Part shown: one piece after another, positions 24 through 23,143 of the stretch
Position numbering within the stretch: position 1 is the first letter of the stretch
How the letters are laid out: every line of letters starts with the position of its first letter
Assembly: GCA_027050205.1 (NCBI GenBank)
Contig: JALUCS010000114.1
Location: 1 to 27,420 of the forward strand
Length of the DNA: 27,420 nt
Source of the DNA: a candidate division WOR-3 bacterium
Lineage (GTDB): Bacteria; Hydrothermota; Hydrothermia; LBFQ01
Reading direction: 5' to 3'
The notes under the pieces: generated by a model
Database searches by the model: none
What the model saw: the letters and a program-made list of their open reading frames with translations, nothing else
What the model was told of the DNA's origin: nothing
Position numbers and translations under genes: made by a program

Positions 24-1286
24 CTATTTACCTCCTTGTTGTTGTCTTACGTACTCCTCAATCCCCTCGGCTATCGCCTTCGCCAGGCGTCTCTGGTAGG
101 AGGGGCTGGCCAACCTCTTGGCCTCCCTCCGGTTGGTTATGAAGCCCAGCTCCACCAGTACGGAGGGCATCATAACCCACTTAAGGACGTAGAACCCCGC
201 CTGCCTTACCCCCCTGTCCTTCGTTAGAGCCATCTTCAAGGCGCTCCTGTGTATGCTCAAAGCGAGCCTGTAAGACTGCTCCAGGAGGAGGTTCTGGAGG
301 AGGTCACCGATGATGGCCCCCACAGGCTCGTCCGGTTTCACGTAGCCGATATCGTACCTGATGGCGGAGTTCTCAAGTATGGCTACCGCCCTCTCCTCGG
401 ACGTACGGGACTCGGACAGGAAGTAGGTCTCCATTCCGCTGGCCCTCCGGTCCCTGCTGGCGTTGCAGTGGATGCTAACGAAGAGGTGGGCGCCGCTCCG
501 GTTGGCCATCCTTGCCCTCGCGTAGAGGGAGACGTACCGGTCGTCCTTACGGGTCAGGAGTACCCTGTAGCCCTTCGCCCGCAGTATCTTCGCCACCTTC
601 AGGGCCACGGCGAGGTTTATGTCCTTCTCCCTGTACCCGTTCCCGATGGCTCCGGCGTCCCTGCCCCCATGGCCGGGGTCTATGACGACGGTTATCCGGT
701 CGGATTTCTTAGGTACGAGCTTCCTGATCACCACCCGGAGGGTTTCCCCCCTCTTTCGGACGGTGTATCCCCCCTCCCGCGCGCCGAAGTGTACGACAAA
801 GCGGGTCCTTTTCCTGAACTGGACCACCTTCACGTAGGAAACGAAATCCCCATCCCCTACGATCTTCCAGAACTTACCGTACAGTCCCTTAACCTCCACC
901 ACGAGGCTGTCCTCCCCTTTGATCGTCCTGAACTTTCCCCCCTTGGCCGTGATGGTTATGACGTACCTCTCACCGTCCCCCATCCTTCCCATAACGAAAC
1001 GCACCGTGGGCTTCCCCTTGAAGAACCTCTTGCCCTCCGCATCCCAGAACCAGTTCCCGCCCATCTGCAGGAGGATGGGGGCGAGCTGATCCGCCCTGAC
1101 GTAGAGCTTCCCGCCCTTCCACCTCTTCTGTAGGGGGAAGACCCTCCCCCCGTAGGAGACGGCGCCACCGCTTACGTACCTCGCCACCTTCCCCCTATAC
1201 ACCACCCTATTTTCATAGACCTTCGCCCCCGTCGTACGGCGGATCTCGGAGGTGGTTAGCCAACGGGAGAGGAGGAGGACGAACAT
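24..1286 (-). CDS. N-acetylmuramoyl-L-alanine amidase (Amidase_3, AmiA/AmiC-like)
   Basis: VVIDPGHGGRDAGA, EKDINL, FVSIHCNA, SVLVELGFITN zinc-amidase motifs; start overlaps the permease stop (TGATG). Confidence 0.95.
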   Translation of the reverse strand: MFVLLLSRWLTTSEIRRTTGAKVYENRVVYRGKVARYVSGGAVSYGGRVFPLQKRWKGGKLYVRADQLAPILLQMGGNWFWDAEGKRFFKGKPTVRFVMGRMGDGERYVITITAKGGKFRTIKGEDSLVVEVKGLYGKFWKIVGDGDFVSYVKVVQFRKRTRFVVHFGAREGGYTVRKRGETLRVVIRKLVPKKSDRITVVIDPGHGGRDAGAIGNGYREKDINLAVALKVAKILRAKGYRVLLTRKDDRYVSLYARARMANRSGAHLFVSIHCNASRDRRASGMETYFLSESRTSEERAVAILENSAIRYDIGYVKPDEPVGAIIGDLLQNLLLEQSYRLALSIHRSALKMALTKDRGVRQAGFYVLKWVMMPSVLVELGFITNRREAKRLASPSYQRRLAKAIAEGIEEYVRQQQGGK

Positions 1287-2203
1287 CAGACTTCGTAGTA
1301 TATCCTTCGCTCTATGAAGACCTTCTGAAGGACCGTCAGAAGCCCCACCACCAACAGTAGGGCGATGGCGACGGCGGAGGCGTAGCCGATGTTGAAGTCC
1401 TCAACGCCCTTCTGGTAGAGGTAATACACCAGGACGTTGGTCGTACCCATAGGGCCACCGGGTGGAGGTCCGGTCATTATCCAGATGGGGGCGAAGACCT
1501 GAAAGGAGATGATGAAGCTGGTAAGATAGACGTAGAAGAGGGAGGGGGCGAGGAGAGGTAGGGTTATTCGCCAGAACACCGTCCATGCTCCGGCCCCGTC
1601 TATGGCCGCCGCCTCGTACACGCTCCTGTTTATGGACTTGAGGCCGGCGTAGAGTATTATCGTGTTGTAGCCGAAGCTCTTCCAGACGGCCATTATCACC
1701 ACCGAGAGGAGGGCGAGGGAGGGACCGTGGCCGAAGAAGATGCCGGAAGGCTCCTCAAGCCAGCGGAGGGTGGGGAGGTGGAGGAGGCTTAGGACGAAGT
1801 TGAAGAAGCCGGCGGAGGGGTTGTATAGCCACTTCCAGACGACGGAGGCCGGCACGAGGGATATTACCACCGGGGTGAAGACGGCGAACTTGAGGAGGGA
1901 GGCGAGGGGCCCGTTCGTGCTACTTATCAGGAGGGCCGCGAGGAGGGCGACGGTGATGCCGATGGAGATGCTAAGGAAGGAGTACCAGAAGGTGTTGCCC
2001 ATCGCCTGCCAGAAGAAGGGGTCGTGGAGGAGCATTTCAAAGTTCTTGAGACCGACCCATTTTTGAAACCCCACCAGTCCCCACTTCTGGAAGGAGTTGA
2101 TGAGGACCATAAAGGATGGGATGAACTTAAAAACCGTCAAAACCGTCAGCGCTGGCATCAGGAAGACCACCGCCAAAACAACCTTCCTCTTCTGCGAAAA
2201 CAA
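1286..2203 (-). CDS. Carbohydrate ABC transporter permease (CUT1, UgpA/MalF-like)
   Basis: Multiple hydrophobic segments, WVGLKNF and EAA loop YEAAAIDGA...FWRITLPLL. Confidence 0.93.
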   Translation of the reverse strand: MFSQKRKVVLAVVFLMPALTVLTVFKFIPSFMVLINSFQKWGLVGFQKWVGLKNFEMLLHDPFFWQAMGNTFWYSFLSISIGITVALLAALLISSTNGPLASLLKFAVFTPVVISLVPASVVWKWLYNPSAGFFNFVLSLLHLPTLRWLEEPSGIFFGHGPSLALLSVVIMAVWKSFGYNTIILYAGLKSINRSVYEAAAIDGAGAWTVFWRITLPLLAPSLFYVYLTSFIISFQVFAPIWIMTGPPPGGPMGTTNVLVYYLYQKGVEDFNIGYASAVAIALLLVVGLLTVLQKVFIERRIYYEV

Positions 2204-2209
2204 GACGTT

Positions 2210-2215
2210 ATTATA
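2210..2215 (-). promoter_or_regulatory. -10 box TATAAT, 6 nt before the TTG start at 2203
   Basis: Minus strand reads TATAAT-aacgtc-TTG. Confidence 0.7.
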
Positions 2216-2869
2216 CCGGGGAACGGCCAGTGAATTTGAGGGGGACGCCTAAGGGTTTTCCTTCGCTACGGGGAAAGGGACGTCCCCTTCGCATCTTTGG
2301 AACCGATACGGTGCGAGGTGTAAATTGGTAATATCTCTAAACTTGCGAGAACATAAGTAATTTTTGAGTATCCAGCGATACCTCTTCACAAAATCGCAGA
2401 AACTCGGATTACCATCCCATTTTGAAGGTGCGTCTCAAACGGAGGGTAGTACCTCTGGTTGCAGTTAGACCGCCGTATCCGGTAAGGCAACACGAATAGG
2501 GATTCTGAATTTTGGGACCACAAAAAATAGTGTAATATGTATAGATACTCGTAAAAACTAAAAAATTGCAGTTAGTAGTACTAAACCGCCTAAAATCCTA
2601 CAGACGTCTATACAAAATCTTGAACCTGTTTCGGTTTGATGAGACTGCAGAGTATTCGCTGCACCATCAGTCTGATATTTTGTATCATTTTGGTAATTAC
2701 TTCAAATTTTTATAGAAATTGTGTGTATTATGATAAATTTCTCCATCATTTATGCGTATGCGGGGTTCATATGCCCATACGGCAAAATTGACCGTTCAGA
2801 AATCCTCAAGACGAAATTTCAATTCGGAGCTTGTGCGGTTGTCGGTAAGGATTTGGGAAGGTTCCCTCA

Positions 2870-2895
2870 CGTAAAATAATGCGACCGTAAAATAA
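2870..2895 (+). promoter_or_regulatory. Tandem CGTAAAATAA direct repeat; the second copy contains the -10 box TAAAAT (2888-2893), 8 nt before ATG 2902
   Basis: CGTAAAATAA at 2870-2879 and 2886-2895. Confidence 0.6.
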
Positions 2896-2901
2896 CATGC
2901 T

Positions 2902-3243
2902 ATGCGGTACGTTTTCGCTATCTTTACGGCTCTGCTCCTTGCATCCTGCGGCTCCCAGAACGGTAAGAGCGACTACTCCGGCAAGTGGGAGACCGGTTTC
3001 GGTTTCGTGGAGCTGACCCAGAAGGGCGATTCCCTCATCGGGGAGTTCACCGGCGGGAACACGGGTAAGTTCCTCGGTGAGATACGCAACGATACCGTCT
3101 TCTTCACTATAAAGGACGCCTCCTTCACGGCCGAAGAGTTGGAAGGCTACGCCGAGATAAGGAGTCCCAAGGTGATGAAGGGACAGTACCGTCCCAAAGG
3201 CACCAAGGTGTGGGAGGGTAAGTTCTGGATGATGAAGAAATGA
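2902..3243 (+). CDS. Hypothetical lipoprotein
   Basis: Signal peptide MRYVFAIFTALLLASC with lipobox LASC; beta-rich body (YSGKWETGFG). Confidence 0.8.
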   Translation: MRYVFAIFTALLLASCGSQNGKSDYSGKWETGFGFVELTQKGDSLIGEFTGGNTGKFLGEIRNDTVFFTIKDASFTAEELEGYAEIRSPKVMKGQYRPKGTKVWEGKFWMMKK

Positions 3244-4826
3244 GCGACCGCCATCTCGGATACTGCGTTGGGGTACTCCGGCCCAACGAGATAACCTTCA
3301 CGAGCTTTGTTCCCCCGAAGATGGGGGAGTTCGTCCTCATAACCTACAGGGAGGGCGACCGGGACGTAAGGATCCTCGGGATGGTGAATTACATAGAGCG
3401 GTTTGACCGTTTCCTACCGGAGGACAACAACCCAGATCACGTCGCCTCAATAAGCAAGATATACCGGATAGGGGGGATATTCCGGGCGAGGACGACCCTC
3501 CTCGGTGAGATTGGGAAGGACGGTAGGCTCGTGAGGCTCAAGTACCCTCCTATGCCGGGCGCCCCGGTGTACTCCGCTCCTCCCGACGTCCTACAGGAAA
3601 TATTCGCAGCAGAGGACCCTCTTAGGACGGCAAAGATAGGTACCCTTCTGACCTCCCCCGACGTTGAGGTGGGGGTGGATATAAACCAGATAGTCTCCCG
3701 CCACCTCGCCATCCTCGCCGTGACCGGAGGCGGTAAGTCCAACGCCGTCTCCGTCATACTTGAGGAGATTGCAAAGAAGAACGGGACGGCTCTCGTAATA
3801 GACGTCCACGGGGAGTACATAGACGCCCAGTTCCGCAACTCAAGGGGGGAGGTGGTCACCAACCCCATAGATGTCAGGATAGACCTCGCCTCCATGCCCC
3901 CCGGCGACATCGCTGCTATGTGTGGCATAGACTTTGACAGGAGCAGTCGCCAGTACTACGTGATGATGGAACTGGTCAAGTGCGTGAAGGAGAACAGGCG
4001 GAGGGCGGCCATACTGGACGTTATGGACAGCGACCCCTTCTCCGACGATCTCCCGGCCAACCCTTCCTTTATGGACGACCTGATAGACACCCTCCGCGCC
4101 CTCATAGAGGCAAGGAGGAGCAAGGAGGAGGACGTGGAGGCCCCCTGTGAGTTCTACCGCACCACCAAGCCCGATGAGCTTATAGGGACGTACATCCGCC
4201 TCGTCAACCTCCGCGACAAGATAGGGGACAGGGTCCAAGACAACGCCACGCCCATAGTTGAGCTGGTGGGGAGGTACGGGGAGGGTAAGATAAACGTCCT
4301 TGACCTCCGGGGGTTGGACTACGAGGCTATGGACGTCATAGTCTCCCACGTCCTGCTCTCCTTCCTCAAGGAGCGGAAGAGGTGGGTACAGGAGGGGGAG
4401 GGACATCTCCGTGTCCCCGTCTTGGTGGTCGTTGAGGAGGCCCACATCTTCGCCCCCAAGGGGGTATCCACGAAGACCAAGTACGCCCTATCCAAGGTGG
4501 CGAGGGAGGCGAGGAAGTTCGGTCTGGGGGTCGTCCTGGTTAGCCAAAGGCCGAAGGGTTTGGACGAGAACGTCCTCTCACAGATGAACAACTGGATAAT
4601 ACTGCGGATAGTGGAGCCGGAGGATCAGAAGCACGTTCAGAGGGCCTCGGAGACTTTAAGTTCGGACCTGCTCCAGTACCTACCCGCCCTCAACCCCGGT
4701 GAGGCTATCCTCCTCGGACCGTTCGTTAGGGTGCCTCTTCTCGTAAAGTTCAGGCTTTCGCAGGCGCGTAGGGGTGGCCACGACATAGACGCCGTGGGGG
4801 AGTGGTCCCGCTACTCCTCCCGTTAG
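3240..4826 (+). CDS. herA: HerA/DUF87-family ATPase (FtsK-HerA superfamily)
   Basis: N-terminal HAS-barrel-like region, RHLAILAVTGGGKS Walker A, VVVEEAH Walker B, AREARKFG arginine finger, SQRP motif. Confidence 0.88.
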   Translation: MSDRHLGYCVGVLRPNEITFTSFVPPKMGEFVLITYREGDRDVRILGMVNYIERFDRFLPEDNNPDHVASISKIYRIGGIFRARTTLLGEIGKDGRLVRLKYPPMPGAPVYSAPPDVLQEIFAAEDPLRTAKIGTLLTSPDVEVGVDINQIVSRHLAILAVTGGGKSNAVSVILEEIAKKNGTALVIDVHGEYIDAQFRNSRGEVVTNPIDVRIDLASMPPGDIAAMCGIDFDRSSRQYYVMMELVKCVKENRRRAAILDVMDSDPFSDDLPANPSFMDDLIDTLRALIEARRSKEEDVEAPCEFYRTTKPDELIGTYIRLVNLRDKIGDRVQDNATPIVELVGRYGEGKINVLDLRGLDYEAMDVIVSHVLLSFLKERKRWVQEGEGHLRVPVLVVVEEAHIFAPKGVSTKTKYALSKVAREARKFGLGVVLVSQRPKGLDENVLSQMNNWIILRIVEPEDQKHVQRASETLSSDLLQYLPALNPGEAILLGPFVRVPLLVKFRLSQARRGGHDIDAVGEWSRYSSR

Positions 4827-5972
4827 TTGGGTTTGAGGCGGGAGTACCTTCCCCTTCTCTTAGCCGGCACCCTCGCCCTCTTTGGGGTCATAGGTCTCCT
4901 ACCCGATTGGGGCCTCGCCCTCAAACAGGCGGCCTACAACCTCCTTGGGATGGCTCTGTTCCTTTACACCATCCGGATAAACATCCGCACCATCGTTATG
5001 AACTCCCGCCCCGTGTATTACCTGACCCTCCTCCTGCTCGTCGCCGTCCTCTTCTTCGGTGGCGGTGGTGGAGTGCGGCGGTGGTTCAACCTCGGATTTA
5101 TGAACTTTCAGCCATCGGAGTTGGCCAAAGTGGTCGTCCCCATCTACCTCATCGGCTCGGAGGGTACCCTAAGGAGGCTCCTCCTCGGCATCCTACCGTG
5201 GTTCCTCGTCCTCGTGGAGCCGGATCTGGCCACCAGCAGCGTCATCCTCGTCCTAACCCTCTACGTCGTCTTCATAACGGCCAAAGATTTGAAGGTGGTC
5301 GTCCTCCTCTTCTCCGTCCTCGCCGCCCCCATCGTCTCCTTCGCCAAGGTCCTATTCTGGGCGTTCCTCGGCCTCATAACGGCGGCCTTCTTGGTCCTTC
5401 GGGCCTCCCTTGGCTGGATCGTCCTAACCCTCGGCCTCGTGATAGGCATAGGCCTCACCACCCCCGTACTGTGGAGGAAGGGCCTCAAGGAGTACCAGAG
5501 GCGTAGGATAATGGCCATGCTCAACCCCCATGAGAACAGGGAGGTACTCTATCAGAGCTACCAGTCCCGAATCGCTCTCGCAAATGCCGGCCCCTTCGGA
5601 AAGGGGATAAGGGGAGCCACCCAGAAGAACTACGGTTTCCTGCCCGCCGCCCATACGGACTTCGCCTTCACCTCCATCGTTGAAGTATACGGCTACGTAG
5701 TAGGTGCTATTCTAATCCTGCTCCTGTACCTGCTTCCCTTCTCCCTCTTCTACCTCTCCCTCTCACCGGATCCCTACGTCCAGAGGGTGGCCTCAACGGC
5801 GGGGACCTTCTTCCTCTACCAGACCTCCGTCAATCTCATGTCAGTCCTCGGCCTCCTCCCCATAGCCGGTATCCCCCTCCCCTTTATAACCTACGGCGGA
5901 AGCCACGTCTTGGCGGAATGGCTTTGGCTCGCCTTGGCTTACAGCGCATTTCGGTGGAGGGTTGAAACGTAG
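4827..5972 (+). CDS. rodA: SEDS family peptidoglycan glycosyltransferase, RodA-like
   Basis: RRWFNLG..FQPSELAK, EPDLAT, FLPAAHTDF, GIPLPFITYGGS motifs; LKEYQRRRI is RodA-like. Confidence 0.88.
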   Translation: MGLRREYLPLLLAGTLALFGVIGLLPDWGLALKQAAYNLLGMALFLYTIRINIRTIVMNSRPVYYLTLLLLVAVLFFGGGGGVRRWFNLGFMNFQPSELAKVVVPIYLIGSEGTLRRLLLGILPWFLVLVEPDLATSSVILVLTLYVVFITAKDLKVVVLLFSVLAAPIVSFAKVLFWAFLGLITAAFLVLRASLGWIVLTLGLVIGIGLTTPVLWRKGLKEYQRRRIMAMLNPHENREVLYQSYQSRIALANAGPFGKGIRGATQKNYGFLPAAHTDFAFTSIVEVYGYVVGAILILLLYLLPFSLFYLSLSPDPYVQRVASTAGTFFLYQTSVNLMSVLGLLPIAGIPLPFITYGGSHVLAEWLWLALAYSAFRWRVET

Positions 5973-5991
5973 GGCGTTCAGCCCTTAAAAT
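5962..5991 (+). promoter_or_regulatory. Sigma70-type promoter TTGAAA-18-TAAAAT, 8 nt before ATG 6000
   Basis: TTGAAA 5962-5967, TAAAAT 5986-5991. Confidence 0.7.
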
Positions 5992-5999: not shown

Positions 6000-6773
6000 A
6001 TGATGTGGAGTCTTTTACTCGTTGTAGGGGCGGGGAAAGGTGCGGATACTGCCGTACGTGAGGTCTTTGACAAGGGGGAGATAGACTGGACCCACGGCTT
6101 CGTAAGGGCCAAGGGGTACGGCTTCGTAGACCCGAAGAAACCGAAGGGACAGGCCCGTCTCCTCGCCGAGCGGGCGGCCGTCGTGGACGCCCGACGCAAC
6201 CTCCTTGAGATCCTCAAGGGTGTGCATATAACCTCCGAGACCGTGGTTGAGGACTACATGACGACGAGCGACCTCATCGTCCAGAGGGTTGAGGGCATAG
6301 TGAAGGGGGCGAGGGTGGTAGGTAAGCCAAAGTACTACAAGGACGGTAGGGTGGAGGTGGTCGTTGAGGTCTCCTTGGATACCCTCGCGAAGGAGGTGGC
6401 CCCCAAGGAGAAAGGGGTACCGGGAGCGACCAGTAAAGGCAAGGAGTCGCCCAAGGACGTACAGGGGGTCATAATAAAGACCCCCAAGGGTGCGAAGGCC
6501 TGCCTCTATCCCCGCATAGTAGATGAGAAGGGCAACGTCCTGTTGGACTTCTCCGATTACCCGGAGGTCAGGAGCGCCTGGAGCCGTGCGGTGAAGTTCG
6601 TAAAGGGCAAGGTCTCCCAGAACGAGGCCGGCCAACTCGTGATAGAGGCGGCGGAGGCCAAGGGGTGCGATATAGTCATAAAACGCGACCAGAGGGGTAA
6701 GATAGAGCGGCTGAAGAAGGTGGCCCGCTTCCTGTTCAAGGCGGGGAAGTTCGTAATAGACCTCGTTATGTGA
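6000..6773 (+). CDS. LPP20/FlgP-like exported protein
   Basis: ARLLAERAAVVDARRNLLEILKGVHITSETVVED...VEGIVKGARVV pattern typical of LPP20-like domains; no lipobox Cys. Confidence 0.65.
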   Translation: MMWSLLLVVGAGKGADTAVREVFDKGEIDWTHGFVRAKGYGFVDPKKPKGQARLLAERAAVVDARRNLLEILKGVHITSETVVEDYMTTSDLIVQRVEGIVKGARVVGKPKYYKDGRVEVVVEVSLDTLAKEVAPKEKGVPGATSKGKESPKDVQGVIIKTPKGAKACLYPRIVDEKGNVLLDFSDYPEVRSAWSRAVKFVKGKVSQNEAGQLVIEAAEAKGCDIVIKRDQRGKIERLKKVARFLFKAGKFVIDLVM

Positions 6774-7262: not shown

Positions 7263-7409
7263 AGGTTAGCACTATCGTTAGGAGGCAACAGGAAGTGTCT
7301 CACTTTTACAGGGATACGTTGAAAGGTGCTACAGTTCGGTATAGAGGGTAGACGGTGATACCGGGCCTATTTGGTTCAAACCCTCCAGTCGTACCCTCAT
7401 CAAGGGTCG

Positions 7410-7478
7410 GCAATCCTTCCTCTCGCCGGTACCTTTGAAACCTACGGGTACGAGATAGAACCAAGGCCTATATATCTG
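7410..7478 (+). pseudogene. Remnant of the 3' end of a paralog of the 8520-9164 gene
   Basis: AILPLAGTFETYGYEIEPRPIYL versus AIIPLADTFGTYEYEIELSPIYM (9087-9155): 16/23 identical, ungapped. Confidence 0.75.
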
Positions 7479-7495
7479 GCCGAAGTAAATTATGA

Positions 7496-7524
7496 TTGCA
7501 AAATCTTAAATTCTACCTTAAAAT
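7496..7524 (+). promoter_or_regulatory. Promoter TTGCAA-17-TAAAAT, 8 nt before ATG 7533
   Basis: TTGCAA 7496-7501, TAAAAT 7519-7524. Confidence 0.7.
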
Positions 7525-7532
7525 ATGGACTT

Positions 7533-8168
7533 ATGCTTCTATACTTTCTGTCGCAACCAGTAGAGTTAGAAGGTGGATGGTGGGCTGCCCTGCCTCTAAA
7601 GAGGGACACTTTGATACTCCCTGATGACAGCGTACCTAAAGAGAAGGATGCGAAGGTCGTAATCAAGGCCTACCAAAGGTTCTGGTTTGCCTATCCCAAG
7701 CACAGGTCCTACTCCGGGGCTACACTCATAGCTGGCCAGAGATGGATAGAAAAGGGCGACGTAGATATGAAGGGGAGGTACGAGGGGATGGGCTATAAGT
7801 TCGCCTATAGGAGTCAGAGCGGAGACAAGTACTACGACCTTTACTACTATCCGATACCCAAGGTTGATAGCCTCATAGTCTATGTCAGGAGCAAAGAGAA
7901 GTACTGCAGCTTCATTATGAGTGCGGATATACGCATGGTTGATGATACCGGAGGGGTTATTGAGGGGCAGGGGTGGAAAGTCGTCAAAGTTGTGGTAAAA
8001 GAGCCGAATAGATGGCATAGAGGTACGATATACCTACCCGGCATTCTTGGACCCATCACATCCCTGTCGGTTGTTCATACCTACGGCCTAACGTTCTCCA
8101 TCGGCCCCGATGGAGGGTCCATAGACTCCTGTGCTACGTTTGAAGTGGGGCCTATCTATCTGAAATGA
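7533..8168 (+). CDS. Hypothetical exported protein, possibly CBM11/CIA30-like beta-sandwich; start corrected from 7371 to 7533
   Basis: Promoter directly upstream of ATG 7533; N-terminus MLLYFLSQ; ends TFEVGPIYLK, similar to the neighbouring paralog. Confidence 0.65.
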   Translation: MLLYFLSQPVELEGGWWAALPLKRDTLILPDDSVPKEKDAKVVIKAYQRFWFAYPKHRSYSGATLIAGQRWIEKGDVDMKGRYEGMGYKFAYRSQSGDKYYDLYYYPIPKVDSLIVYVRSKEKYCSFIMSADIRMVDDTGGVIEGQGWKVVKVVVKEPNRWHRGTIYLPGILGPITSLSVVHTYGLTFSIGPDGGSIDSCATFEVGPIYLK

Positions 8169-8180
8169 GGAAGTGAAAGT

Positions 8181-8475
8181 ATGCTGACACTTTTGATTTC
8201 CCTTGATCCTCCCTTCTTGAGCGAGGTTCGGATAGGGATACCCGGATACAGGAACATAGAACCTCATATGGCAGTTAACGGCAACGGCGTGAGGAAAAGG
8301 TTGAGGGCGAAAGGGCATTTACCGTTCTCAAGGGCGGGCTTAGGATGAAGGTTGAGGGTGAGGTGTATTCCGTAAGCGGCAGGCTCGTCTTCAAAGGCGA
8401 GGGCAGAATTTCTCTGCCCGCCGGTGTGTCTTTTGTCAGAGCCGGGGTAGGGTGTTTAGGGTAGTGGTTAGATAA
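8181..8475 (+). pseudogene. Collapsed pseudogene of a T9SS cargo protein
   Basis: MLTLLISLDPPFLSEVRIG..NIEPHMAVNG start, then in shifted frames EVYSVSGRLVFKGEGRISLPAGVSFVRAG and GRVFRVVVR*, a sorting-domain-like tail. Confidence 0.65.
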
Positions 8476-8481
8476 AAGCGT

Positions 8482-8510
8482 TTGAAAAATCTTTATCTCA
8501 CCCTTAAAAT
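8482..8510 (+). promoter_or_regulatory. Promoter TTGAAA-17-TAAAAT, 9 nt before ATG 8520
   Basis: TTGAAA 8482-8487, TAAAAT 8505-8510. Confidence 0.7.
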
Positions 8511-8519
8511 ATAACCTTA

Positions 8520-9164
8520 ATGATGCTTTTCGTTTATATTCTCGCTGATTTAGACGAGAGCAAGCAGGCGGATAGCATAGTGAAGTCGTGGGGGGTGGTG
8601 GAGTTCCATTATCACGGCTGGGACGTCAAGAACTTTGACACCTTGCCCGTTAGTGATAGCATCCCCGTACCCGATGGAGTGTACAAGGTGATAGACGACT
8701 ACGGCCCTCTACACATCAAAGGTAAGTGGGAGTACTACAGGAGGGACTGGAAGACCATGGAGTTTAAGCCTCTCCTCGGATCTATCCTTAGGGGCTACCC
8801 CCTTGACCTCCTTGACTGGCATAGGTACTTCGTTTTCTATATCAGGGGGAAAGGGAGGTACGCGATAACGGCCGAGGTTGTTCATGAGGGCTACTGTAAG
8901 TGGTTTGTAGTAGAAAACCTGGTCCTTGATTCATCGTGGAGGGAGATAAGGATAAGCTTGGACACTTTGGAAAAATACTTCAGCGTTATCTATCCTCCGG
9001 AATGGCTGTGGAAAGACGGATACTCCCCGTATTGTTGGGCATGGGGGAAGGACGATAAGGAGAGTGGTTTTGTTCCCCTAAGATGGGCAATTATCCCCCT
9101 CGCCGACACCTTCGGTACTTACGAATACGAGATAGAACTAAGCCCGATATATATGGTAATGTAG
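8520..9164 (+). CDS. Hypothetical exported protein, possibly CBM11/CIA30-like beta-sandwich
   Basis: 214-aa ORF with promoter; PLDL..FVFYIRGKGRY...SWREIRISL...YEIELSPIY pattern recalls galactose-binding-like domains. Confidence 0.65.
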   Translation: MMLFVYILADLDESKQADSIVKSWGVVEFHYHGWDVKNFDTLPVSDSIPVPDGVYKVIDDYGPLHIKGKWEYYRRDWKTMEFKPLLGSILRGYPLDLLDWHRYFVFYIRGKGRYAITAEVVHEGYCKWFVVENLVLDSSWREIRISLDTLEKYFSVIYPPEWLWKDGYSPYCWAWGKDDKESGFVPLRWAIIPLADTFGTYEYEIELSPIYMVM

Positions 9165-9299
9165 GGAAAACTTTTATGAGTCCGTAAGGAAACTATGCGG
9201 CCGAAGACGAAGTCGGATTGATGGCTTCCGCTGTCTAACGTTCTAAGGTGCCTCCGACCATCCCTTTATCGTCAAAGGTTCCGGGGGTAAAATCCCGGT

Positions 9300-10169
9300 A
9301 TGCGGGTGTATATCACCGAGGTGGCACCGAGGGACGGCCTACAGAACGTCAAGGAGAACGTACCTACGGATAAGAAGGTCGCCTTCGTGAACGCCCTCTC
9401 CGAGACGGGGGTTGATGAGATAGAGGTCACGGCCTTCGTGCATCCCAAGTGGGTCCCCCAGATGGCCGACGCCGAAGAGGTCCTAAGGCGCATAAGGCGG
9501 CGGGAGGGGGTGAAGTACTCGGCCATCGTACCCAACGAAAAGGGGCTTGAGAGGGCGCTATCCGTGGGTTTGGACAAGATAGCCGTCCTGACGGCCGCGA
9601 CGGACACCTTCAACCAGAAGAACATCAACACGGACATAGAGGGTTCGTTCCAGAGGTTGACCCCCGTCGTCAGGAGGGCGAAGGCAGAGGGCTTGGAGGT
9701 GAGGGGGTACGTATCCGTCGCCTTCTGGTGTCCCTACGAGGGGAAGGTGCCGCCGGAGAGGGTTAGGGATGTCGTATTGCGGCTCTTGGATGCGGGGGTG
9801 GACGAGGTCTCCCTCGGCGACACCATAGGGAGGGCCTCACCCAAGGACGTGGCCGAGGTCCTGGAACTCCTCCTCAAGGACGTACCGAAGGATAGGATCG
9901 TCCTCCACTTCCACGCCACGTACGGTATGGGGGTTGCCAACGTCCTCTGCGCCTACAGGGAGTACGGAATATACAGGTACGATGCCTCCGCAGGGGGCCT
10001 CGGAGGTTGCCCGTACGCACCCGGTGCCAGCGGGAACGTGGCGACGGAGGACGTGGTCTTCGCCCTCAAGGGGGTAGGGGCGGACGTGCGGGTGGACGAG
10101 CGGAAGGTGGTTGAGGCCGCCCGTCTCCTCGGCCTGAAGTTGGAATCCTCCATAAGCAGGGTGCTTTAG
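9300..10169 (+). CDS. Hydroxymethylglutaryl-CoA lyase (DRE-TIM family)
   Basis: EVAPRDGLQN, FVHPKWVPQMAD, LGDTIG, LHFHAT, GGLGGCPYAPGASGNVATED; TAAAAT at 9288-9293. Confidence 0.93.
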   Translation: MRVYITEVAPRDGLQNVKENVPTDKKVAFVNALSETGVDEIEVTAFVHPKWVPQMADAEEVLRRIRRREGVKYSAIVPNEKGLERALSVGLDKIAVLTAATDTFNQKNINTDIEGSFQRLTPVVRRAKAEGLEVRGYVSVAFWCPYEGKVPPERVRDVVLRLLDAGVDEVSLGDTIGRASPKDVAEVLELLLKDVPKDRIVLHFHATYGMGVANVLCAYREYGIYRYDASAGGLGGCPYAPGASGNVATEDVVFALKGVGADVRVDERKVVEAARLLGLKLESSISRVL

Positions 10170-10865: not shown

Positions 10866-11493
10866 CCCCTTGGAGTTGGCCCTCCGGGAGATAGAGACGA
10901 AGTTGGACGAGATGTACTCCCTTATCGTTGAGATGATAGACAACTCCCTGGAGCGGCCGGACGAGGCCCTGAAGCGGGAGCAACGGGTGAATACCCTTGA
11001 GATAGAGATAGACGAGCTTATCGTCCAGACCATAGCACTGTACCATCCGGAGGCCTCTCCCCTGCGGGAGATCCTGATGGCTTTGAAGATAAATAACGAC
11101 CTTGAGAGGATAGGGGACCACGCCGAGAACGTCGCCAGGGACATAAAGCTCCTTAGGGAAAGGGGGGAGGACATCTCCGAGCTTTGGGAGGACATCTCCC
11201 TCATAAAGGACCTGGCCCGGAGGGCCTTCGTTGAGGCTTACTCCTCCTTCAAGAACAGGGACGCCAACCTCGCCAAGGAGATATGGAGGTCGGACTACAT
11301 CGTGGACGCCCTTAGGGACAAGATACTCAAGAAGGCCGTGGATACCCTGCCAACGCCGGTGGCCCTCAAGACCGTCAGCATAGCCCAGAACTTTGAGAGG
11401 ATAGCAGATCTGGCCACCAACATAGCAGAGGACGTCGTCTTCATCGTTGAGGGGGAGATAATAAAGCACAGACCGCTGGAGGAGATACAATGA
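10855..11493 (+). CDS. phoU: Phosphate signalling protein PhoU
   Basis: NDLERIGDHAENVA and NFERIADLATNIAE repeats; ends EGEIIKH. Confidence 0.93.
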   Translation: MSYSPLELALREIETKLDEMYSLIVEMIDNSLERPDEALKREQRVNTLEIEIDELIVQTIALYHPEASPLREILMALKINNDLERIGDHAENVARDIKLLRERGEDISELWEDISLIKDLARRAFVEAYSSFKNRDANLAKEIWRSDYIVDALRDKILKKAVDTLPTPVALKTVSIAQNFERIADLATNIAEDVVFIVEGEIIKHRPLEEIQ

Positions 11494-11948
11494 GAAGGTT
11501 CCTCCTTGCCCTCACCCTGCTTGCGGCCGGTTGTACGGTGAACGTCAATACCCTTGACCCGGAGGCGGTGGCCCACGCGTACCTTAAGGCCCTTGAGAAC
11601 GGCGACTTCAAGAAGGCCTACATGCTCATAGACGGGGTCTCCCAGAGGTACACCCCCTACAAGGAGTTCGTCAAGTACTGGCAGAACTACTTCAGGAGGT
11701 TCGGTCGTCCCTACAAGCACACCATTCACGAGGTCGCCAAGGTGCGTCCCGGTCTCGTCGTCGTTGAGTACACTTGGCACTACAAGAAGACTCCGGGGGT
11801 GGATACTACGGTCTTTTTGGATCAGAGGTCCTACCGGATGAAGTTGAAGTTTGAGTTCCGGAGGTGGGCGGTCAAGTTCCGCAAGTACCGGATAATCAAG
11901 GAGACCCCGACCCCGTACGGTATTCAGAGGGAGGTCATAGAGGAGTAG
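11490..11948 (+). CDS. Hypothetical lipoprotein (NTF2-like/DUF4878-like)
   Basis: MRRFLLALTLLAAGC lipobox; PEAVAHAYLKALENGDFKKAY helix pattern; ATGA overlap with phoU. Confidence 0.75.
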   Translation: MRRFLLALTLLAAGCTVNVNTLDPEAVAHAYLKALENGDFKKAYMLIDGVSQRYTPYKEFVKYWQNYFRRFGRPYKHTIHEVAKVRPGLVVVEYTWHYKKTPGVDTTVFLDQRSYRMKLKFEFRRWAVKFRKYRIIKETPTPYGIQREVIEE

Positions 11949-14171: not shown

Positions 14172-14205
14172 ATTTTAAGGACGAAGTCGCCTCCACCCTT
14201 AGAAT
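14172..14205. promoter_or_regulatory. Back-to-back divergent -10 boxes for dprA (TAAAAT, minus) and the PorZ-like gene (TAGAAT, plus)
   Basis: Each box is 8 nt from its start codon within a 50-bp intergenic gap. Confidence 0.65.
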
Positions 14206-14213: not shown

Positions 14214-16145
14214 ATGCTCTACCTCCTCGCCCAAACTTGGGAGCTTTGGACGAACACCGAGCTTCTGCTTGACGCCTGCAGGTACGCTGATACGGTCTAT
14301 ATGGCGACGGCCGGTGGCCTACTCTTGAGCGACGGCGACACCGTCCTGAAGGCCTACACCAAACTGGACGGCATAAAGACCGCCCAGGTCCTCTCCGTCG
14401 CCTGTGAGGGGGGGGACATCTGGATACTTACGGGGAGCGGACTCCAGTACAGGGATGGGAACAGGTTCAAGGACATAAACCTCATCGTCTTTGGAGATCC
14501 CGACGAGATACTCGGAGGCAGGAGGATAGTCAGGCGGGGGAACTTCCTCTTCATCCTCGGTAAGAGCAAACCGACCGCCCTAAGGTTGGAAGATACGGTT
14601 GAGATAGCCTTTCCACCGGATATAGAGAGGGCTAACGTCCTCAAGGTCTTTGGGGATACCCTCGTCCTCGGAGGCCCCTACGGGGCGATATACTCAAGGG
14701 TGGATAGCTTCTTCTCCCCTTCCTCCTGGGACACCCTGATATCCGGTCGGGAGGTGTACGACATAGACACCTTCAGGGGGAGGTGGGTGTTTGCTACGGA
14801 CAGCGGGGTTATAGACCTCGGCGGACGGATCTCCCTACCCGGTGTAGCCGTAAGTTTCGTACATTCCTACGGCGGGAAACTCTGGATGGCGGCAGCGAGG
14901 ACCCTCTACACCTTAGACTCCGTAGGTGCCGATACGGTTAGGGTGAGGGGCGGGGACATCCGTTATCTCGGCAACGGTTTCGTGGGCTTCGGGTACAGGA
15001 GCGACCCCTCCTATATGCTGGGCCTCGGAATCTACCGCCTCCCCGACCTCCACCGCATAAGGACGGGGGGGCTCGGCTTTACCTCCATAACGGGGATGGT
15101 GGAGTTGGGGGACAGCCTCGTCCTCTGCGGCAAGGGCATAGAGTACTCCTGCGCCGTATGGCCGAGCGGTAAGACCTTCAACTTCCTCTTCGTCAATACC
15201 CTGAAGTACGTCAACGGCTACCTCTGGATAGGCTACCACGGGTACGGCCTCAAGGCCTACAGACCCGACTTCTCCGATACCATAACCGTAAGGCCCTCCG
15301 ACCTCGGAAACTTCGGCTACGTCTTTGACATAACGGGCTTTCAGGGGAAGGTTTATACCCTCGCCTGGAACGCCTACGGCTCCTCAAGGCTCTTTGAGAT
15401 AGAGGACTCAACGGCGAGGAGTACGGGTATAAGCGGCGCCCACCAGAGCCTACTTCACTCAACCGACGAGTACCTCCTGGTATGCTCCGAAACGGAGTGC
15501 CGGTTCTACGACTCCAACCTCCAGCCCTACGGCTCCGTCGGCGTAGGGGCCAACGTCATCTACGGCAGAGGGGACACCCTCCTCTTCGGTACCTCCAACG
15601 GCCTGTACTTCGTCTTCCCCTCCACCCTCACCTACGACGGCCCCTACCTAATGGGTAGGTACATAAGCGGCGTATGGAAGGGGTTGGACGGTAGGATATG
15701 GGTAGCGGACGACAGGGGTATAGAGGTGTTAGACACCACCTTGAGGATAGTTGAGACCTTCACACCTCTGAACTCCCCCCTCGCTGGCTCCCCCGTCTCC
15801 AACTCCCCCTACTTCCCCCTCCGCTACACCCTCCTGGTGAATACGGACAGGAACCGGGTTTATATCGCCACGGACGGGGGCCTCTCTGTCCTTACCTCCT
15901 ACGACGTCGTCTCCGGCTGGGAGAGGGCCTCCCTCGTATATCCCAACCCCGCCCGCAGGGGCCAGACCGTCAGGGTGAAGAACTGCCCCATAGGGGCGAA
16001 GCTCGTCCTCTACACCGCCTCCGGTGGCAAAGTGGCCGAAACCTCCGGCTGCTCCATAAAGCACACCTTCCGCCCCGGCCTCTACTTCCTCGCCGTCATC
16101 GGGCCAAACGGGCGGAGGGTCTACAGGCTCGTCCTCACCGATTGA
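14214..16145 (+). CDS. Beta-propeller protein with T9SS type A C-terminal sorting domain, PorZ-like
   Basis: Repeated propeller motifs (VYMATAGGL, VFATDSGV, LFGTSNGL, VYIATDGGL), FTPLNSPL, then VYPNP...LYTASG...PGLYFL...YRLVL. Confidence 0.75.
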   Translation: MLYLLAQTWELWTNTELLLDACRYADTVYMATAGGLLLSDGDTVLKAYTKLDGIKTAQVLSVACEGGDIWILTGSGLQYRDGNRFKDINLIVFGDPDEILGGRRIVRRGNFLFILGKSKPTALRLEDTVEIAFPPDIERANVLKVFGDTLVLGGPYGAIYSRVDSFFSPSSWDTLISGREVYDIDTFRGRWVFATDSGVIDLGGRISLPGVAVSFVHSYGGKLWMAAARTLYTLDSVGADTVRVRGGDIRYLGNGFVGFGYRSDPSYMLGLGIYRLPDLHRIRTGGLGFTSITGMVELGDSLVLCGKGIEYSCAVWPSGKTFNFLFVNTLKYVNGYLWIGYHGYGLKAYRPDFSDTITVRPSDLGNFGYVFDITGFQGKVYTLAWNAYGSSRLFEIEDSTARSTGISGAHQSLLHSTDEYLLVCSETECRFYDSNLQPYGSVGVGANVIYGRGDTLLFGTSNGLYFVFPSTLTYDGPYLMGRYISGVWKGLDGRIWVADDRGIEVLDTTLRIVETFTPLNSPLAGSPVSNSPYFPLRYTLLVNTDRNRVYIATDGGLSVLTSYDVVSGWERASLVYPNPARRGQTVRVKNCPIGAKLVLYTASGGKVAETSGCSIKHTFRPGLYFLAVIGPNGRRVYRLVLTD

Positions 16146-17528: not shown

Positions 17529-17674
17529 AAAAATTGATCCCTGCATTTCAATAAACCGTACTCCGGCAGGCACCCAATGAGGGGGAAAGTTGTCGTCTAA
17601 AGGCTAAAATTTTGATGTTATTTATAAAGTTCCTCCATTTTTGCCGTAATTTTTGTAGATTGTTGAATAAAAAA

Positions 17675-17751: not shown

Positions 17752-17802
17752 GTGAGAGGTGAGTATTTTAAGGCCGTTCAAACCTCCTTTTGTGGCCTTC
17801 CC

Positions 17803-18936: not shown

Positions 18937-18942
18937 CCCGTT

Positions 18943-18978
18943 AGTATAACGGTGTAGGCGGGTGTCAAGCCGTATAAT
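18943..18978. promoter_or_regulatory. Divergent -10 boxes for hutI (TATACT, minus) and the GlmL-like gene (TATAAT 18973-18978, plus)
   Basis: 6 and 9 nt from their start codons, within a 51-bp gap. Confidence 0.65.
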
Positions 18979-18987
18979 ACCGTCCCG

Positions 18988-20817
18988 ATGCCGAAGAGGT
19001 ACATAGCAACGGACTGTGGTAGCACTACCACTAAGGCCATAATGGTGGAGAAGAAGAAGGAGGGTTGGAGGCTCGTAGCGAGGGGGGAGGCTCCCACGAC
19101 CGTGGAGAAGCCCTTTGAGGACGTGACCATCGGGGTCAGGAACGCCATAAGGGAGTTGGAGGAGATAACCGGCATAAGACTTCTGGACGAGGAAGGCAAC
19201 ATAATCAAGATGGAGGAGCCAACGGAGAGGGAGGGGACGAACGTATACGTCTCCACGTCCTCGGCCGGTGGTGGGCTTCAGATGTTGGTGGTGGGTGTGG
19301 TGAGGAACATGACGGCGGAGTCGGCCGCCCGCGCCGCCCTCGGGGCCGGGGCCATAGTGATGGAGGTAATTTCCGTAGATGACGGCAGGAAACCTTACGA
19401 GAAGGTTGAACTCATAAGGAAGCTCCGTCCGGATATGATACTGCTCGCCGGAGGCGTTGAGGGGGGGACGGTCAAGCACGTGGTGGAGCTGGCGGAGCTG
19501 ATAGCCGCGGCCGACCCCAAGCCCCGCTTCGGCTCAACCTACAAGATGCCCGTAATATACGCCGGGAACTCCCAGGCCCGTGAGGAAATAAAGCGCATCC
19601 TGGGGGACAAGGTCGCCCTGTACATCGTGGATAACATCCGCCCCACCCTTGACACGGAGAACCTCCACCCCGCCCGTGAGAAGATCCACGACCTCTTCCT
19701 TGAACACGTGATGCAGCAGGCTCCGGGGTACTCCAAACTCATGAAGATGGTGGACGCCCCCATAGTCCCGACACCCGGAGCCGTGGGTATGCTGATAGAG
19801 AGGGTGGCGAGGAAGGAGCAGATTGAGGTCCTCGGCGTGGATATAGGTGGAGCTACGACGGACGTCTTCTCCGTCTTCAGAAACTCCGAGGGCAAGCTCG
19901 TCTTCAACCGCACCGTCTCCGCCAACCTCGGTATGAGCTACTCCATCTCCAACGTGATGGTTGAGGCCGGTATAGAGAACGTCCTGCGGTGGGTACCCTT
20001 CAAGATAAAGGAGTCCGACCTGAAGAACCGCATCCGCAACAAGATGATACGCCCCACGACCATCCCTATGACCATAGAGAGCCTGATAATAGAGCAGGCC
20101 ATAGCCCGTGAAGCCCTTCGCCTCTCCCTTGAGCAGCACAAGATGTTTGCGACGGAGCTGAAGGGCGTCCAGAGGGGTGGGGACATAGCCCGCGCCATCG
20201 GTGGGGAGGAGGAGGAGACCCTCGTCAACATGATGTCCCTTGACCTCATAATCGGCTCCGGTGGTGTCCTCTCCCACGCCCCCCGCCGGGTCCAGTCCGC
20301 CCTGATGATGTTGGACGCCTTCCAGCCGGAGGGGGTGACCAAGTTGGCCGTGGACAGCATCTTCATGATGCCCCACCTCGGCGTCATATCCACCATAGAC
20401 GAGGAGGCGGCGTGGGAGGTGTTTGACAGGGACTGCCTGATACGCCTCGGTACGGCCATCGCCCCCAAGGCGGTGGCCAAGGAGGGTAAGCTCATCCTCC
20501 GGGCCAGGATAGAGTATCCGGACGGCCGCACGGAGCATCTTGACCTCCACTTCGGCAAGATACACCGCATAGACCTACCCCTCGGCGTAAAGGCGAAGGT
20601 GTTCCTTGAGCCTGCGAGGGGCGTGGATGTCGGTGAGGGCAGGGGCAAGAAGATGATGGCCGAGGTTGAGGGTGGGGTCGTGGGGCTGATATTTGACGGG
20701 AGGGGTAGGCCCATCCAGATACCGGAGGACGAGCATAACCGGGTGGAGAAGCTCTTTGAGTGGTTTGAGGCCCTCCAGGTCTATCCCAAGTTGGACAGGC
20801 TGTCCAGGGCGGCTTAG
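18988..20817 (+). CDS. GlmL/MutL-family (glutamate mutase L) ASKHA-type ATPase
   Basis: ATDCGSTTTKA, TSSAGGGL, AARAALGAGA, ILLAGGVEGG, IYAGN, VPTPGAV, GVDIGGATTDVFS, IIGSGGVLSHA. Confidence 0.85.
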   Translation: MPKRYIATDCGSTTTKAIMVEKKKEGWRLVARGEAPTTVEKPFEDVTIGVRNAIRELEEITGIRLLDEEGNIIKMEEPTEREGTNVYVSTSSAGGGLQMLVVGVVRNMTAESAARAALGAGAIVMEVISVDDGRKPYEKVELIRKLRPDMILLAGGVEGGTVKHVVELAELIAAADPKPRFGSTYKMPVIYAGNSQAREEIKRILGDKVALYIVDNIRPTLDTENLHPAREKIHDLFLEHVMQQAPGYSKLMKMVDAPIVPTPGAVGMLIERVARKEQIEVLGVDIGGATTDVFSVFRNSEGKLVFNRTVSANLGMSYSISNVMVEAGIENVLRWVPFKIKESDLKNRIRNKMIRPTTIPMTIESLIIEQAIAREALRLSLEQHKMFATELKGVQRGGDIARAIGGEEEETLVNMMSLDLIIGSGGVLSHAPRRVQSALMMLDAFQPEGVTKLAVDSIFMMPHLGVISTIDEEAAWEVFDRDCLIRLGTAIAPKAVAKEGKLILRARIEYPDGRTEHLDLHFGKIHRIDLPLGVKAKVFLEPARGVDVGEGRGKKMMAEVEGGVVGLIFDGRGRPIQIPEDEHNRVEKLFEWFEALQVYPKLDRLSRAA

Positions 20818-20819
20818 TT

Positions 20820-20850
20820 TTTGAACGATCGTTCAAATCCGCCGTATAAT
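20820..20850 (+). promoter_or_regulatory. Promoter TTGAAC-18-TATAAT with a perfect 18-bp palindrome over the -35 box
   Basis: TTTGAACGATCGTTCAAA 20820-20837; TATAAT 20845-20850; ATG 20858. Confidence 0.8.
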
Positions 20851-20857
20851 ACCTGCT

Positions 20858-23143
20858 ATGATAGTACCGTGGTTGTTGCAGGCTGCCGGGTACGGCACGG
20901 TGGAGGGGTACGTCTACGGCGAGGGTGGGGAACCCCTGCCGGGTGCCGTGGTGATGGCCATAACCCTGCCCGACAGCGAGAAGGCCGGCGGCACTTACGC
21001 GGACGATAGGGGGTACTTCACCCTGGACCTGAAGCCCGGAAGGTACCTCCTGCGTTTCTCTTATGTGGGCTACAGGAAGAAGGCCCTGCCCATTACCGTC
21101 TCCCCCGGTGAGACCCTCAACGTTGGAAAGGTGAGGCTACCGCAGAAGGCCATAGAGGTGGGGGCGGTGAAGGTGGAGGCGGAGGCTCCGAAGGTGACCT
21201 ACGAGGGGGAGAAGAAGGTCATACGATTCGGGGACGAGCTGACGGCGAAGGGTGGGTCCACCCTTGAGGCCCTGAAGAACGTCCCCGGCATAACCGTGGA
21301 CAACAACGACAACGTCAAGATAAGGAACACCTCCAACATAACCCTCCTGATAAACGGCAAACCCACCGTAATGCAGGTCTCCGAGGCCCTGCGGCAGATA
21401 CCGGCCTCCTCCGTTGAGAGGATAGAGATAATCACCAACCCCGGAGCGAAGTACGAGGCGGAGGGACGGGTGATAATGAACATCGTCCTGAAGAAGCACC
21501 ACGATGAGGGGGTGGCCGCCTCCCTGATGGGACGCCTTGGGACCTTCAACAACTACGGCCTAAGTGCCTCTCTGGGTCTGAATAGCCGTAGGCTAAAGTT
21601 CGTCCTCGGCGGGAACTACTTCCTCTTCTCCCGTTATATGGAGTCCAAGGCCCGGACGGAGACCCCCGACTTCTCCTACGAGGCCGATGGCGAACGCCAC
21701 TACTCCATGAAACCCTACGGCGTAAGGTCCAGCCTTGAGTATCACATCGGCGATAACGACGTCCTGACCCTTGAGGGGAGCTTCGGCCTGTGGAACTTCT
21801 CAATGGGATGGAGGGGAGATTACGGCTCCGGCAAGACGGCGGAGACCGACGTGAGCATAGGCGGTAATAGGGGCAGCGGGTACATCGCCTATACGAAGGA
21901 CTTCCTCCAGAGACACCGGATAGACCTTAGTCTGTACTACGGAATGCGGGGAGGAAGGGAGAGTACCATAAACTACGTAAGAGACGCCTCCGGGAACGTA
22001 CTCTCCGGTTTCAAACGCACCTCTTCCGGGCCGGGGGACAGGTGGAGGGCCAAACTTGACTACACCTACCAGCACAGTAAGGACAGGAAGCTGGAGGCCG
22101 GCTATCAGGGGGACCTGTGGGTATCCGCGGACACGACGGAGTACTACACCTACTCCTCCGGCTCCTTCACCCTCGCCTCTCCAACCCTCGCCTCCCGGTA
22201 CCGCCGCACCACCAACGCCGCCTACGTATCCTACTCCGACCGCCTCGGCAGGGTATCCTACTCCGCCGGATTGAGGGTTGAGGCCACGGACAGGAGGATA
22301 GAGGTGGGAGACAGCACCTACACCTTCCGCTCCACCGACCCCTTCCCCTCCCTCCACCTCTCCTACAGGATGGACGTCGCCAACCAGTTCAGCGTCAGCT
22401 ACTCCCGCCGGATATGGCACCCCCGCCACTGGCAACTGAACCCCTTTATGAGGGTAATAGACGAGTTCACCCTCCAGAGGGGGAACCCCGCCCTGAAGCC
22501 GGAGTACACCCACTCCTTTGAGGCGAGCTATCAGAGAATATTCGGACGGAAGGGATACGCCGGCCTTGAGGCCTTCTACAGGCGGACGGACAACAACATA
22601 GACTACCTGCCGGCCTACGAGGGTACGAAGGTGGTATATACCTGGAGGAACGCGGGCTTCACCACCTCCTCCGGTATTGAGCTTTACGCCACCTACTACC
22701 CCTGGAGGCTCCTCACCCTCAACTTCAGCCTTGACGTATACGACCACAGAGTTTATCTGGACAGCATCACCCGGAGCCTCACCTACGACGCCAAGGGGAG
22801 CCTCACCCTCGGAAGGGGACCCATAGGGCTTCAGCTTAGCGGGCGGTACTCCGGCCCCCGCTACGTACCCGGAGGGGTGCAGAGGGCCTCCTACTCCCTT
22901 GACCTCGGCCTCAGGGTACCCCTAAGCCGGAACCTGTTCCTCGTTGGGCAGTTCAACGACTTCCTCCGCCTCAACCGCAGGGAGACGGAGATAACCTCCG
23001 AGGACTTCAGGCAGGTCAGCACCTACCGAACCAAGTGGCCCTCCCTCTCCGTAATGGTGATGTACGACTACAACAACTTCCGCCGCTTCAGGAAGGAGAT
23101 GAAGAGGGAGGAGACTCCACAGGAGGAGGTACCGCAGTTCTAA
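20858..23143 (+). CDS. TonB-dependent receptor (N-terminal carboxypeptidase-regulatory-like domain, plug, beta-barrel)
   Basis: GEPLPGAVV..FSYVGY, EALKNVPGITVD, LINGKP, VERIEIITNPGAKYEAEG..MNIVLKK, GNPALKPE. Confidence 0.9.
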   Translation: MIVPWLLQAAGYGTVEGYVYGEGGEPLPGAVVMAITLPDSEKAGGTYADDRGYFTLDLKPGRYLLRFSYVGYRKKALPITVSPGETLNVGKVRLPQKAIEVGAVKVEAEAPKVTYEGEKKVIRFGDELTAKGGSTLEALKNVPGITVDNNDNVKIRNTSNITLLINGKPTVMQVSEALRQIPASSVERIEIITNPGAKYEAEGRVIMNIVLKKHHDEGVAASLMGRLGTFNNYGLSASLGLNSRRLKFVLGGNYFLFSRYMESKARTETPDFSYEADGERHYSMKPYGVRSSLEYHIGDNDVLTLEGSFGLWNFSMGWRGDYGSGKTAETDVSIGGNRGSGYIAYTKDFLQRHRIDLSLYYGMRGGRESTINYVRDASGNVLSGFKRTSSGPGDRWRAKLDYTYQHSKDRKLEAGYQGDLWVSADTTEYYTYSSGSFTLASPTLASRYRRTTNAAYVSYSDRLGRVSYSAGLRVEATDRRIEVGDSTYTFRSTDPFPSLHLSYRMDVANQFSVSYSRRIWHPRHWQLNPFMRVIDEFTLQRGNPALKPEYTHSFEASYQRIFGRKGYAGLEAFYRRTDNNIDYLPAYEGTKVVYTWRNAGFTTSSGIELYATYYPWRLLTLNFSLDVYDHRVYLDSITRSLTYDAKGSLTLGRGPIGLQLSGRYSGPRYVPGGVQRASYSLDLGLRVPLSRNLFLVGQFNDFLRLNRRETEITSEDFRQVSTYRTKWPSLSVMVMYDYNNFRRFRKEMKREETPQEEVPQF

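Follow-up and report, generated by a model that had tools for sequence, protein, structure and literature searches.

Can a protein be carried across the inner membrane by a leader of only six to ten residues? The question is raised by a window of 27,420 nucleotides (the whole stretch of DNA analysed here), which is one contig (C114) of a 2.05-Mb assembly of a candidate division WOR-3 bacterium with a completeness of 93.5%. Seven genes of this window, among them those of a TonB-dependent receptor (TBDR) and of a PorZ-like protein with a type IX secretion system (T9SS) C-terminal domain (CTD), had been noted to begin with very short, uncharged, hydrophobic N-termini, here called stubs, in place of canonical signal peptides, and all seven are present at the positions listed in Table 1. 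The original prediction, made from the sequence of the window, was that this lineage may use a minimal export signal of 6-10 residues, which standard predictors would miss. The labels of close homologs read candidate division WOR-3 or 'Thermotogae bacterium', and the EM3 lineage is described as a class inside WOR-3 (PMC12285271). No report of short signals or of a loss of the signal recognition particle (SRP) was found in the literature on WOR-3, subscription journals and supplements lying outside the coverage of this search.

Short leaders occur genome-wide

The observation of short leaders is real and genome-wide. Starts were called from the -10 box, the Shine-Dalgarno sequence, stop overlap and coding potential; the N-terminal residues played no part in the choice. 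This gave 1821 genes. By a fixed rule (no charge at residues 2-6, at least four hydrophobic residues and no long helix), 310 of these genes begin with a stub; as a background, internal Met positions fitted the rule in 2.9% of cases (180/6117). Proteins with a T9SS CTD were collected with TIGR04183 (67 matches) and then with a profile made from these matches, yielding 109 proteins, of which 75 carried a stub by the rule, 21 a canonical signal and 13 another N-terminus. Inspected by eye, eight of these 13 have short uncharged leaders and five are fragments or mis-starts, so that the short total by eye is 83/109. Compared to the remaining genes, stubs are strongly enriched in the CTD proteins (75/109 versus 235/1712; odds ratio 13.9, p = 8e-36). 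On contig C107 of the same assembly (G000), an open frame of 2871 codons contains nine or more CTD-like matches that recur about every 690 nt.

It could be argued that translation really begins further upstream, at non-canonical codons, or that stubs are the first beta-strands of cytoplasmic proteins, and about 10 of the 104 annotated stub calls are indeed cytoplasmic beta1 strands or doubtful starts, 10/104 having been judged by reading to belong to plain cytoplasmic families in which the first strand happens to fit the rule. However, an in-frame stop lies at most 12 codons upstream in 181 of the 310 stub genes (at most five codons in 123), only 10 have a hydrophobic octamer upstream, two of which appear mis-started, and orthologs conserve both the start position and the spacing to the -10 box while their upstream frames vary. 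These stops and conserved starts largely exclude missed upstream extensions, which had been considered unlikely from the outset, and BamA, LptD and TolC cannot be cytoplasmic; hence we regard an artefact of this kind as very improbable.

In the window, most of the starts had been held to be fixed by a -10 box or a stop overlap. The start caller chose the same ATG for the genes starting at 1286, 6000, 7533, 8520, 14214 and 20858, and promoter-like -35/-10 pairs end 7-9 nt 5' of 6000, 7533, 8520 and 20858. The frame at 8181 is a broken remnant whose first part is the start of a paralog (region C126:59742-61200), and its leader has meaning only in the intact paralog. Public gene calls truncate some stub starts (P0002, P0003 and P0122). 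Genome-wide, a -10 box of the TA[AGT]AAT type lies 5-10 nt 5' of the start in 860 of the 1821 genes (about 47%), which are predicted from the sequence to be leaderless.

Stubs are carried by proteins that must cross the inner membrane

Of the 304 stub genes that lie outside the window, 177 were scanned against Pfam, with at most the first 380 residues of each, and 104 of the 177 gave matches. The stub is found on proteins that are obliged to cross the inner membrane, and the majority of the envelope and secreted proteins of this bacterium that are not lipoproteins begin with one. Its bearers include the envelope machinery (BamA, a second POTRA protein, LptD, LptA, SurA, Skp, LolA and two TolC), further families (FadL, TBDRs, PCuAC, DsbA-like proteins, YajC, YceI, ChaN, peptidases C25, S8 and M14, and FG-GAP propellers) as well as SprA and PorV. 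A YidD-family protein on C87 bears a stub, and yajC overlaps def, encoding peptide deformylase, in one operon (G000:C132:21317-22148); the search for YajC homologs gave eight close matches only.

The two lipoproteins of the window were said to keep normal signals, and they do so in the same canonical manner as the 89 lipobox genes found genome-wide, all of which have basic signals of 12-22 residues. Stubs as short lipoprotein signals, cleaved by signal peptidase II, were rejected since Cys is not enriched: among the 310 stub genes, four lipobox-like sequences were found, and Cys at positions 7-13 was observed 19 times versus 13.4 expected. The family of the LPP20-like protein starting at 6000 shows a switch between a lipoprotein signal and a Cys-less stub. 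Its distant homologs are mostly lipoproteins (lipobox in 69/106), and its close homologs have a Cys-less stub in 9 of 14 cases, the remaining five apparently being called at inner starts.

The stub ends in register with canonical signals

A stub consists of Met and about six uncharged hydrophobic residues and ends with Ala, Ser or Gly. In four sets of paralogs (C73 versus C83/C87/C104, C71 versus C78/C83, C125 versus C65, and C47 versus C15), a seven-residue stub ends exactly at the -1 residue of the canonical paralog, whose cleavage site was predicted by eye. The junction lies at residue 6-7 in 113 of 156 stub proteins and the hydrophobic run comprises 4-6 residues; with seven residues up to the junction in the paralog sets, a helix-length h-region is absent. 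A charged n-region is absent too, by definition at residues 2-6, and an upstream extension that could supply it is impossible in the 181 genes mentioned above. As position 2 is nearly always bulky, Met1 should be retained, given the known specificity of Met aminopeptidase.

Gln occurs at positions 7-10 in 47 of 204 stub proteins (23%), where 11.7 were expected (p = 1e-9), and follows Ala, Ser or Gly in 36 of the 47; [AG]-Q is likewise found in 13 of 21 canonical CTD signals. The -3 residue is mostly Leu, Ile or Val, as in the canonical signals of the same genome. Lys and Arg are scarce at residues 8-19 (0.85-1.1, compared to 2.0 for the soluble proteins otherwise; p = 6e-22), a bias that Sec substrates would be expected to show. 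Together, the register with the end of canonical signals and the Gln after a small residue suggest that stub proteins may be exported by SecA/SecYEG and cleaved by LepB.

Short leaders recur across WOR-3

Short starts are conserved among close relatives, being found in 5/5 family orthologs of the amidase and in 12/12 orthologs of the TBDR (P0004-P0015), with 11-15 residues up to the Gly of the first strand, whereas more distant TBDR homologs have a basic n-region in 95 of 105 cases, the other 10 appearing truncated. A conserved marker beside lepB has a six-residue stub in this genome. Its homologs came from 80 loci, 3 of which are truncated at contig ends, and the 77 full-length ones all have, judged by eye, a canonical-length signal. 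Heuristic calls at 79 outgroup loci gave 170 canonical versus 18 stub-like N-termini, and on inspection by eye the majority of these 18 proved false; the same heuristic gave 26 canonical versus 105 stub-like for loci of this genome.

Across WOR-3, where 15-63 kb were sampled per genome, so that samples are small and related genomes non-independent, orthologs of Skp, BamA, SurA and LptD form a continuum of leader length. Families f1, f2 and f4 have stubs in nearly all of these markers, the SRP-bearing families f12, f17, f20, f25, f11, f16 and f29 have uncharged leaders of 7-14 residues, and f5 and f8 have short signals with one Lys. Signals are canonical in f10, f13, f14 and f24, and mostly so in f18 and f22. 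Since families with short leaders fall in at least three clades of the SecY tree, the trait arose or was lost repeatedly. The trait attributed to this lineage is thus present throughout this genome but is not confined to one lineage.

No change in the export machinery was found to follow the trait

SecY, YidC, Def and a LepB of ordinary form are present in this assembly, and a search of the genome for a second LepB returned only the one. The pore ring of SecY is kept except for I187A, a position that is also Ala in 3DL8. At the position of Escherichia coli S405, otherwise a conserved Ser, Thr or Ala, SecY has Arg in 15/15 genomes of Hydrothermia, the class to which this genome belongs, and in 0/16 other WOR-3; a prl-like SecY was not found, as R405 follows the class and not the short leaders. 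This Arg adjoins an Asp or Glu in transmembrane segment 5 (L003:1405-2745, loci L145-L174). No column in SecY or LepB separates nine stub-rich from 10 stub-poor genomes, and the seven SecA columns that do so (eight versus seven genomes) are indistinguishable from clade signal. Inspection of SecA, SecY and LepB, as had been suggested, hence revealed no lineage-specific change that tracks the trait. In SecA of f1, f2 and f4 (L316:8491-11517, L317-L321), 6/6 genomes of this clade have Gln or Asn in place of the conserved Glu of the G-T-E-R-H-E motif, and His in place of the Asn that precedes Met in the FDYLRD motif.

The SRP is conserved and described as normally essential (PMC7844537). In the class of this genome, SRP GTPases were found in 0/25 genomes (24 candidates scored per relative and all 33 here) versus matches in 80/121 genomes overall, the Ffh M-domain in 0/60 genomes, and 4.5S RNA in 0/15 genomes versus 11/16 outside the class. 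Families f9, f21, f22, f24 and f30 likewise gave no Ffh/FtsY, Ffh M-domain or 4.5S RNA, and f15, f19 and f23 have only one, divergent SRP GTPase. A loss of SRP as the cause of short leaders was rejected because the one trait does not follow the other from family to family: in samples of 29-59 kb each, short leaders dominate over canonical signals in the SRP-bearing genomes G042 (7:2), G052 (5:0) and G017 (7:2), and are rare in the SRP-less genomes G070 (0:6), G083 (0:6) and G108 (0:3).

How stub proteins may be exported

On balance we consider it probable, though only just, that the stub is what remains of a Sec signal, namely its last seven residues, that SecA/SecYEG export it while the mature domain does the targeting, and that LepB usually cleaves it. 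From an ancestral canonical signal, the n-region and the greater part of the h-region would have disappeared, and targeting to SecA would mostly be supplied by the mature domain, the amine of the retained Met1 being the only charge. The stub would then pass SecA/SecYEG, and the single LepB would cut after about residue 7, a cleavage that would be usual but not obligatory. Being too short for a membrane-spanning helix, the stub would not serve lipoproteins, which need Lgt and LspA and may keep full signals for that reason. It is reported that mature domains themselves contain targeting signals and that prl strains export proteins without a signal (PMC5412566). A minimal signal as originally proposed is well supported by comparison, through the essential envelope proteins, the conservation among orthologs and the register of paralogs.

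The model of the PorZ-like protein is confident (AlphaFold; predicted local distance difference test, pLDDT, 91.8) and comprises two beta-propellers and a CTD, with residues 1-7 outside the fold and the first strand at 8-14. Its best Foldseek match is PorZ (5M11, E 7.6e-24), and its score against the NCBIfam PorZ model is 17.9 versus a cut-off of 260. Several findings weigh against a cleaved Sec signal. In 7 of 22 orthologs of this protein, the conserved first strand is preceded by no more than 0-2 residues, an eighth being ambiguous; these seven have no removable leader, which argues against obligatory cleavage. They belong to two clades only (genomes G141, G140, G142, G111, G114, G120 and G137), and in G141, where the ATG follows a -10 box by 9 nt, the protein starts with the first strand itself. 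Further points are that 48 of 204 stubs lack a junction of hydrophobic residues followed by Ala, Ser or Gly, that Leu follows the junction more often than any other residue (35/156), so that the site is blurred, that the tallies at -1 (Ala, Ser or Gly before 36 of 47 Gln) and -3 are partly forced by the definition of the junction, and that Gln at +1 could be inherited from canonical ancestors. SecY has none of the classical prl changes (I82, I86, I191, I278 and I408 are kept), and secA is missing from this assembly, which we take as a gap; a loss of SecA was rejected, as it is present in 119/121 WOR-3 genomes including the same genus.

The leaderless orthologs could instead indicate that the stub is an uncleaved hydrophobic patch, passing SecYEG head-first and without a signal as in prl mutants, and then kept or later lost to other peptidases. 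Their first strand is uncharged and hydrophobic, whereas leader-bearing orthologs have a polar residue there, seven residues cannot span the membrane as a helix, and the stub of YajC precedes an N-out helix. We nevertheless find this unlikely, since the small residue and Gln at a fixed distance and the exact register with canonical sites point to a processed junction, and since the leaderless orthologs are limited to two clades and are only putatively exported. Less plausible still is a lineage-specific factor that completes the signal, by N-terminal acylation or a formyl group that is not removed, or through an adaptor or a YidC route able to read short stubs, possibly instead of SRP. The missing SRP components and the Arg at S405 throughout the class would fit such a factor, but short leaders dominate in SRP-bearing genomes and are rare in SRP-less ones, Def is present, and no candidate factor came up, although no genome-wide search for one was made. 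Beyond the truncated Sec signal, it is conceivable, although we doubt it, that WOR-3 run a natural Sec export free of signal peptides, in which the translocase would read any free N-terminal 5-7 hydrophobic residues, even the first strand of a fold, head-first and with no membrane-spanning hairpin, and in this class without SRP.

Comparison with known signals

The stub resembles canonical Sec signals cleaved by signal peptidase I, described by the n-h-c scheme (PMC9360617), in being N-terminal and hydrophobic, in what appears to be a small end residue, in its position just before the mature fold and in the basic-poor stretch that follows; it also occurs on the same protein families, and this cell uses canonical signals as well (21/109 CTD proteins). 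It differs in having no basic n-region, about seven residues instead of about 20, a hydrophobic run of 4-6 residues, and mostly Leu, Ile or Val in place of a small residue at -3. The stub would work like a Sec signal, yet it lacks two defining features of that family. With signal-less prlA export and mature-domain targeting (PMC5412566, PMC4826270), it shares that little or no signal is present and that hydrophobic patches of the substrate would target; here, in contrast, export would be natural and proteome-wide, SecY has no I408N-type change, and a conserved stub is kept. Archaeal class III signals of prepilins and archaellins have a very short charged piece, which is cut off on the cytoplasmic side so that a long hydrophobic helix remains; the likeness is the very short N-terminal piece, but in stubs this piece is itself hydrophobic and no helix follows. 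Unlike an SRP-targeted signal anchor, the stub has no long hydrophobic segment, and the searches of the class returned no Ffh, FtsY or 4.5S RNA.

A link to the Q-rule of Bacteroidetes, by which Gln stands at +1 in the majority of substrates of signal peptidase I, had also been drawn and proved weak. Gln is enriched four-fold right after Ala, Ser or Gly at the junction, but it marks only 23% of stub proteins, compared to Q-values above 48% reported for Bacteroidetes (PMC5837995), and glutaminyl cyclase was not recognised (PF05096 gave no match in this 93.5% complete assembly, and two M28 matches were judged by size and N-terminus only). By the frequency of Gln, the stubs do not follow the Q-rule.

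The n-h-c rule is contradicted here on essential proteins and across a whole proteome. Paralogs with long and seven-residue leaders are natural pairs for asking whether the minimal role of a signal peptide is to target, to open the gate or to be cleaved, and a class of at least 60 genomes without detectable SRP offers a second natural test, of membrane-protein targeting. For these organisms, predicted secretomes are probably incomplete and some of the called starts wrong. Strain sy37 of WOR-3 is reported to be in culture (PMC12285271), and N-terminomics on it may be feasible if sy37 bears such leaders.

Features of the window

Table 1. Genes with short leaders in the window, their upstream sites, and two lipoproteins for contrast.
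Feature	Coordinates	Strand	Upstream site	Leader and remarks
N-acetylmuramoyl-L-alanine amidase (Amidase_3)	24..1286	-		MFVLLLSR at ~1266-1286; ATG overlaps stop of upstream gene
Predicted lipoprotein (contrast)	2902..3243	+		Canonical basic n-region and lipobox
LPP20-like protein	6000-6773	+	Promoter-like -35/-10, 5962-5991	MMWSLLLVVGA; Cys-less
211-aa protein of multi-copy family	7533-8168	+	Promoter-like, 7496-7524	MLLYFLSQ; ends S-Q
Gene remnant, 55-codon frame (start 8181)	8181..8475	+		MLTLLIS; first ~35 codons from a T9SS paralog with short leader, fused to CTD sequence out of frame
214-aa protein	8520-9164	+	Promoter-like, 8482-8510	MMLFVYILA
Predicted lipoprotein (contrast)	11490..11948	+		Canonical basic n-region and lipobox
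PorZ-like protein (double beta-propeller, T9SS CTD)	14214-16145	+	TAGAAT box, 14200-14205, 8 nt before ATG	MLYLLAQ
TonB-dependent receptor	20858-23143	+	Promoter-like, 20821-20850	MIVPWLLQ

The proteins starting at 7533 and 8520 have no match in Pfam or NCBIfam, and it is therefore the leader alone that suggests their export. The region 7400-9300 holds a multi-copy family of stub proteins of 207-214 aa without a family match, with copies on C73, C82, C101, C109 and C126 that adjoin remnants of deleted T9SS genes. Further upstream, at 3240-5972, a gene for a HerA-type ATPase is directly followed by a RodA/FtsW gene.

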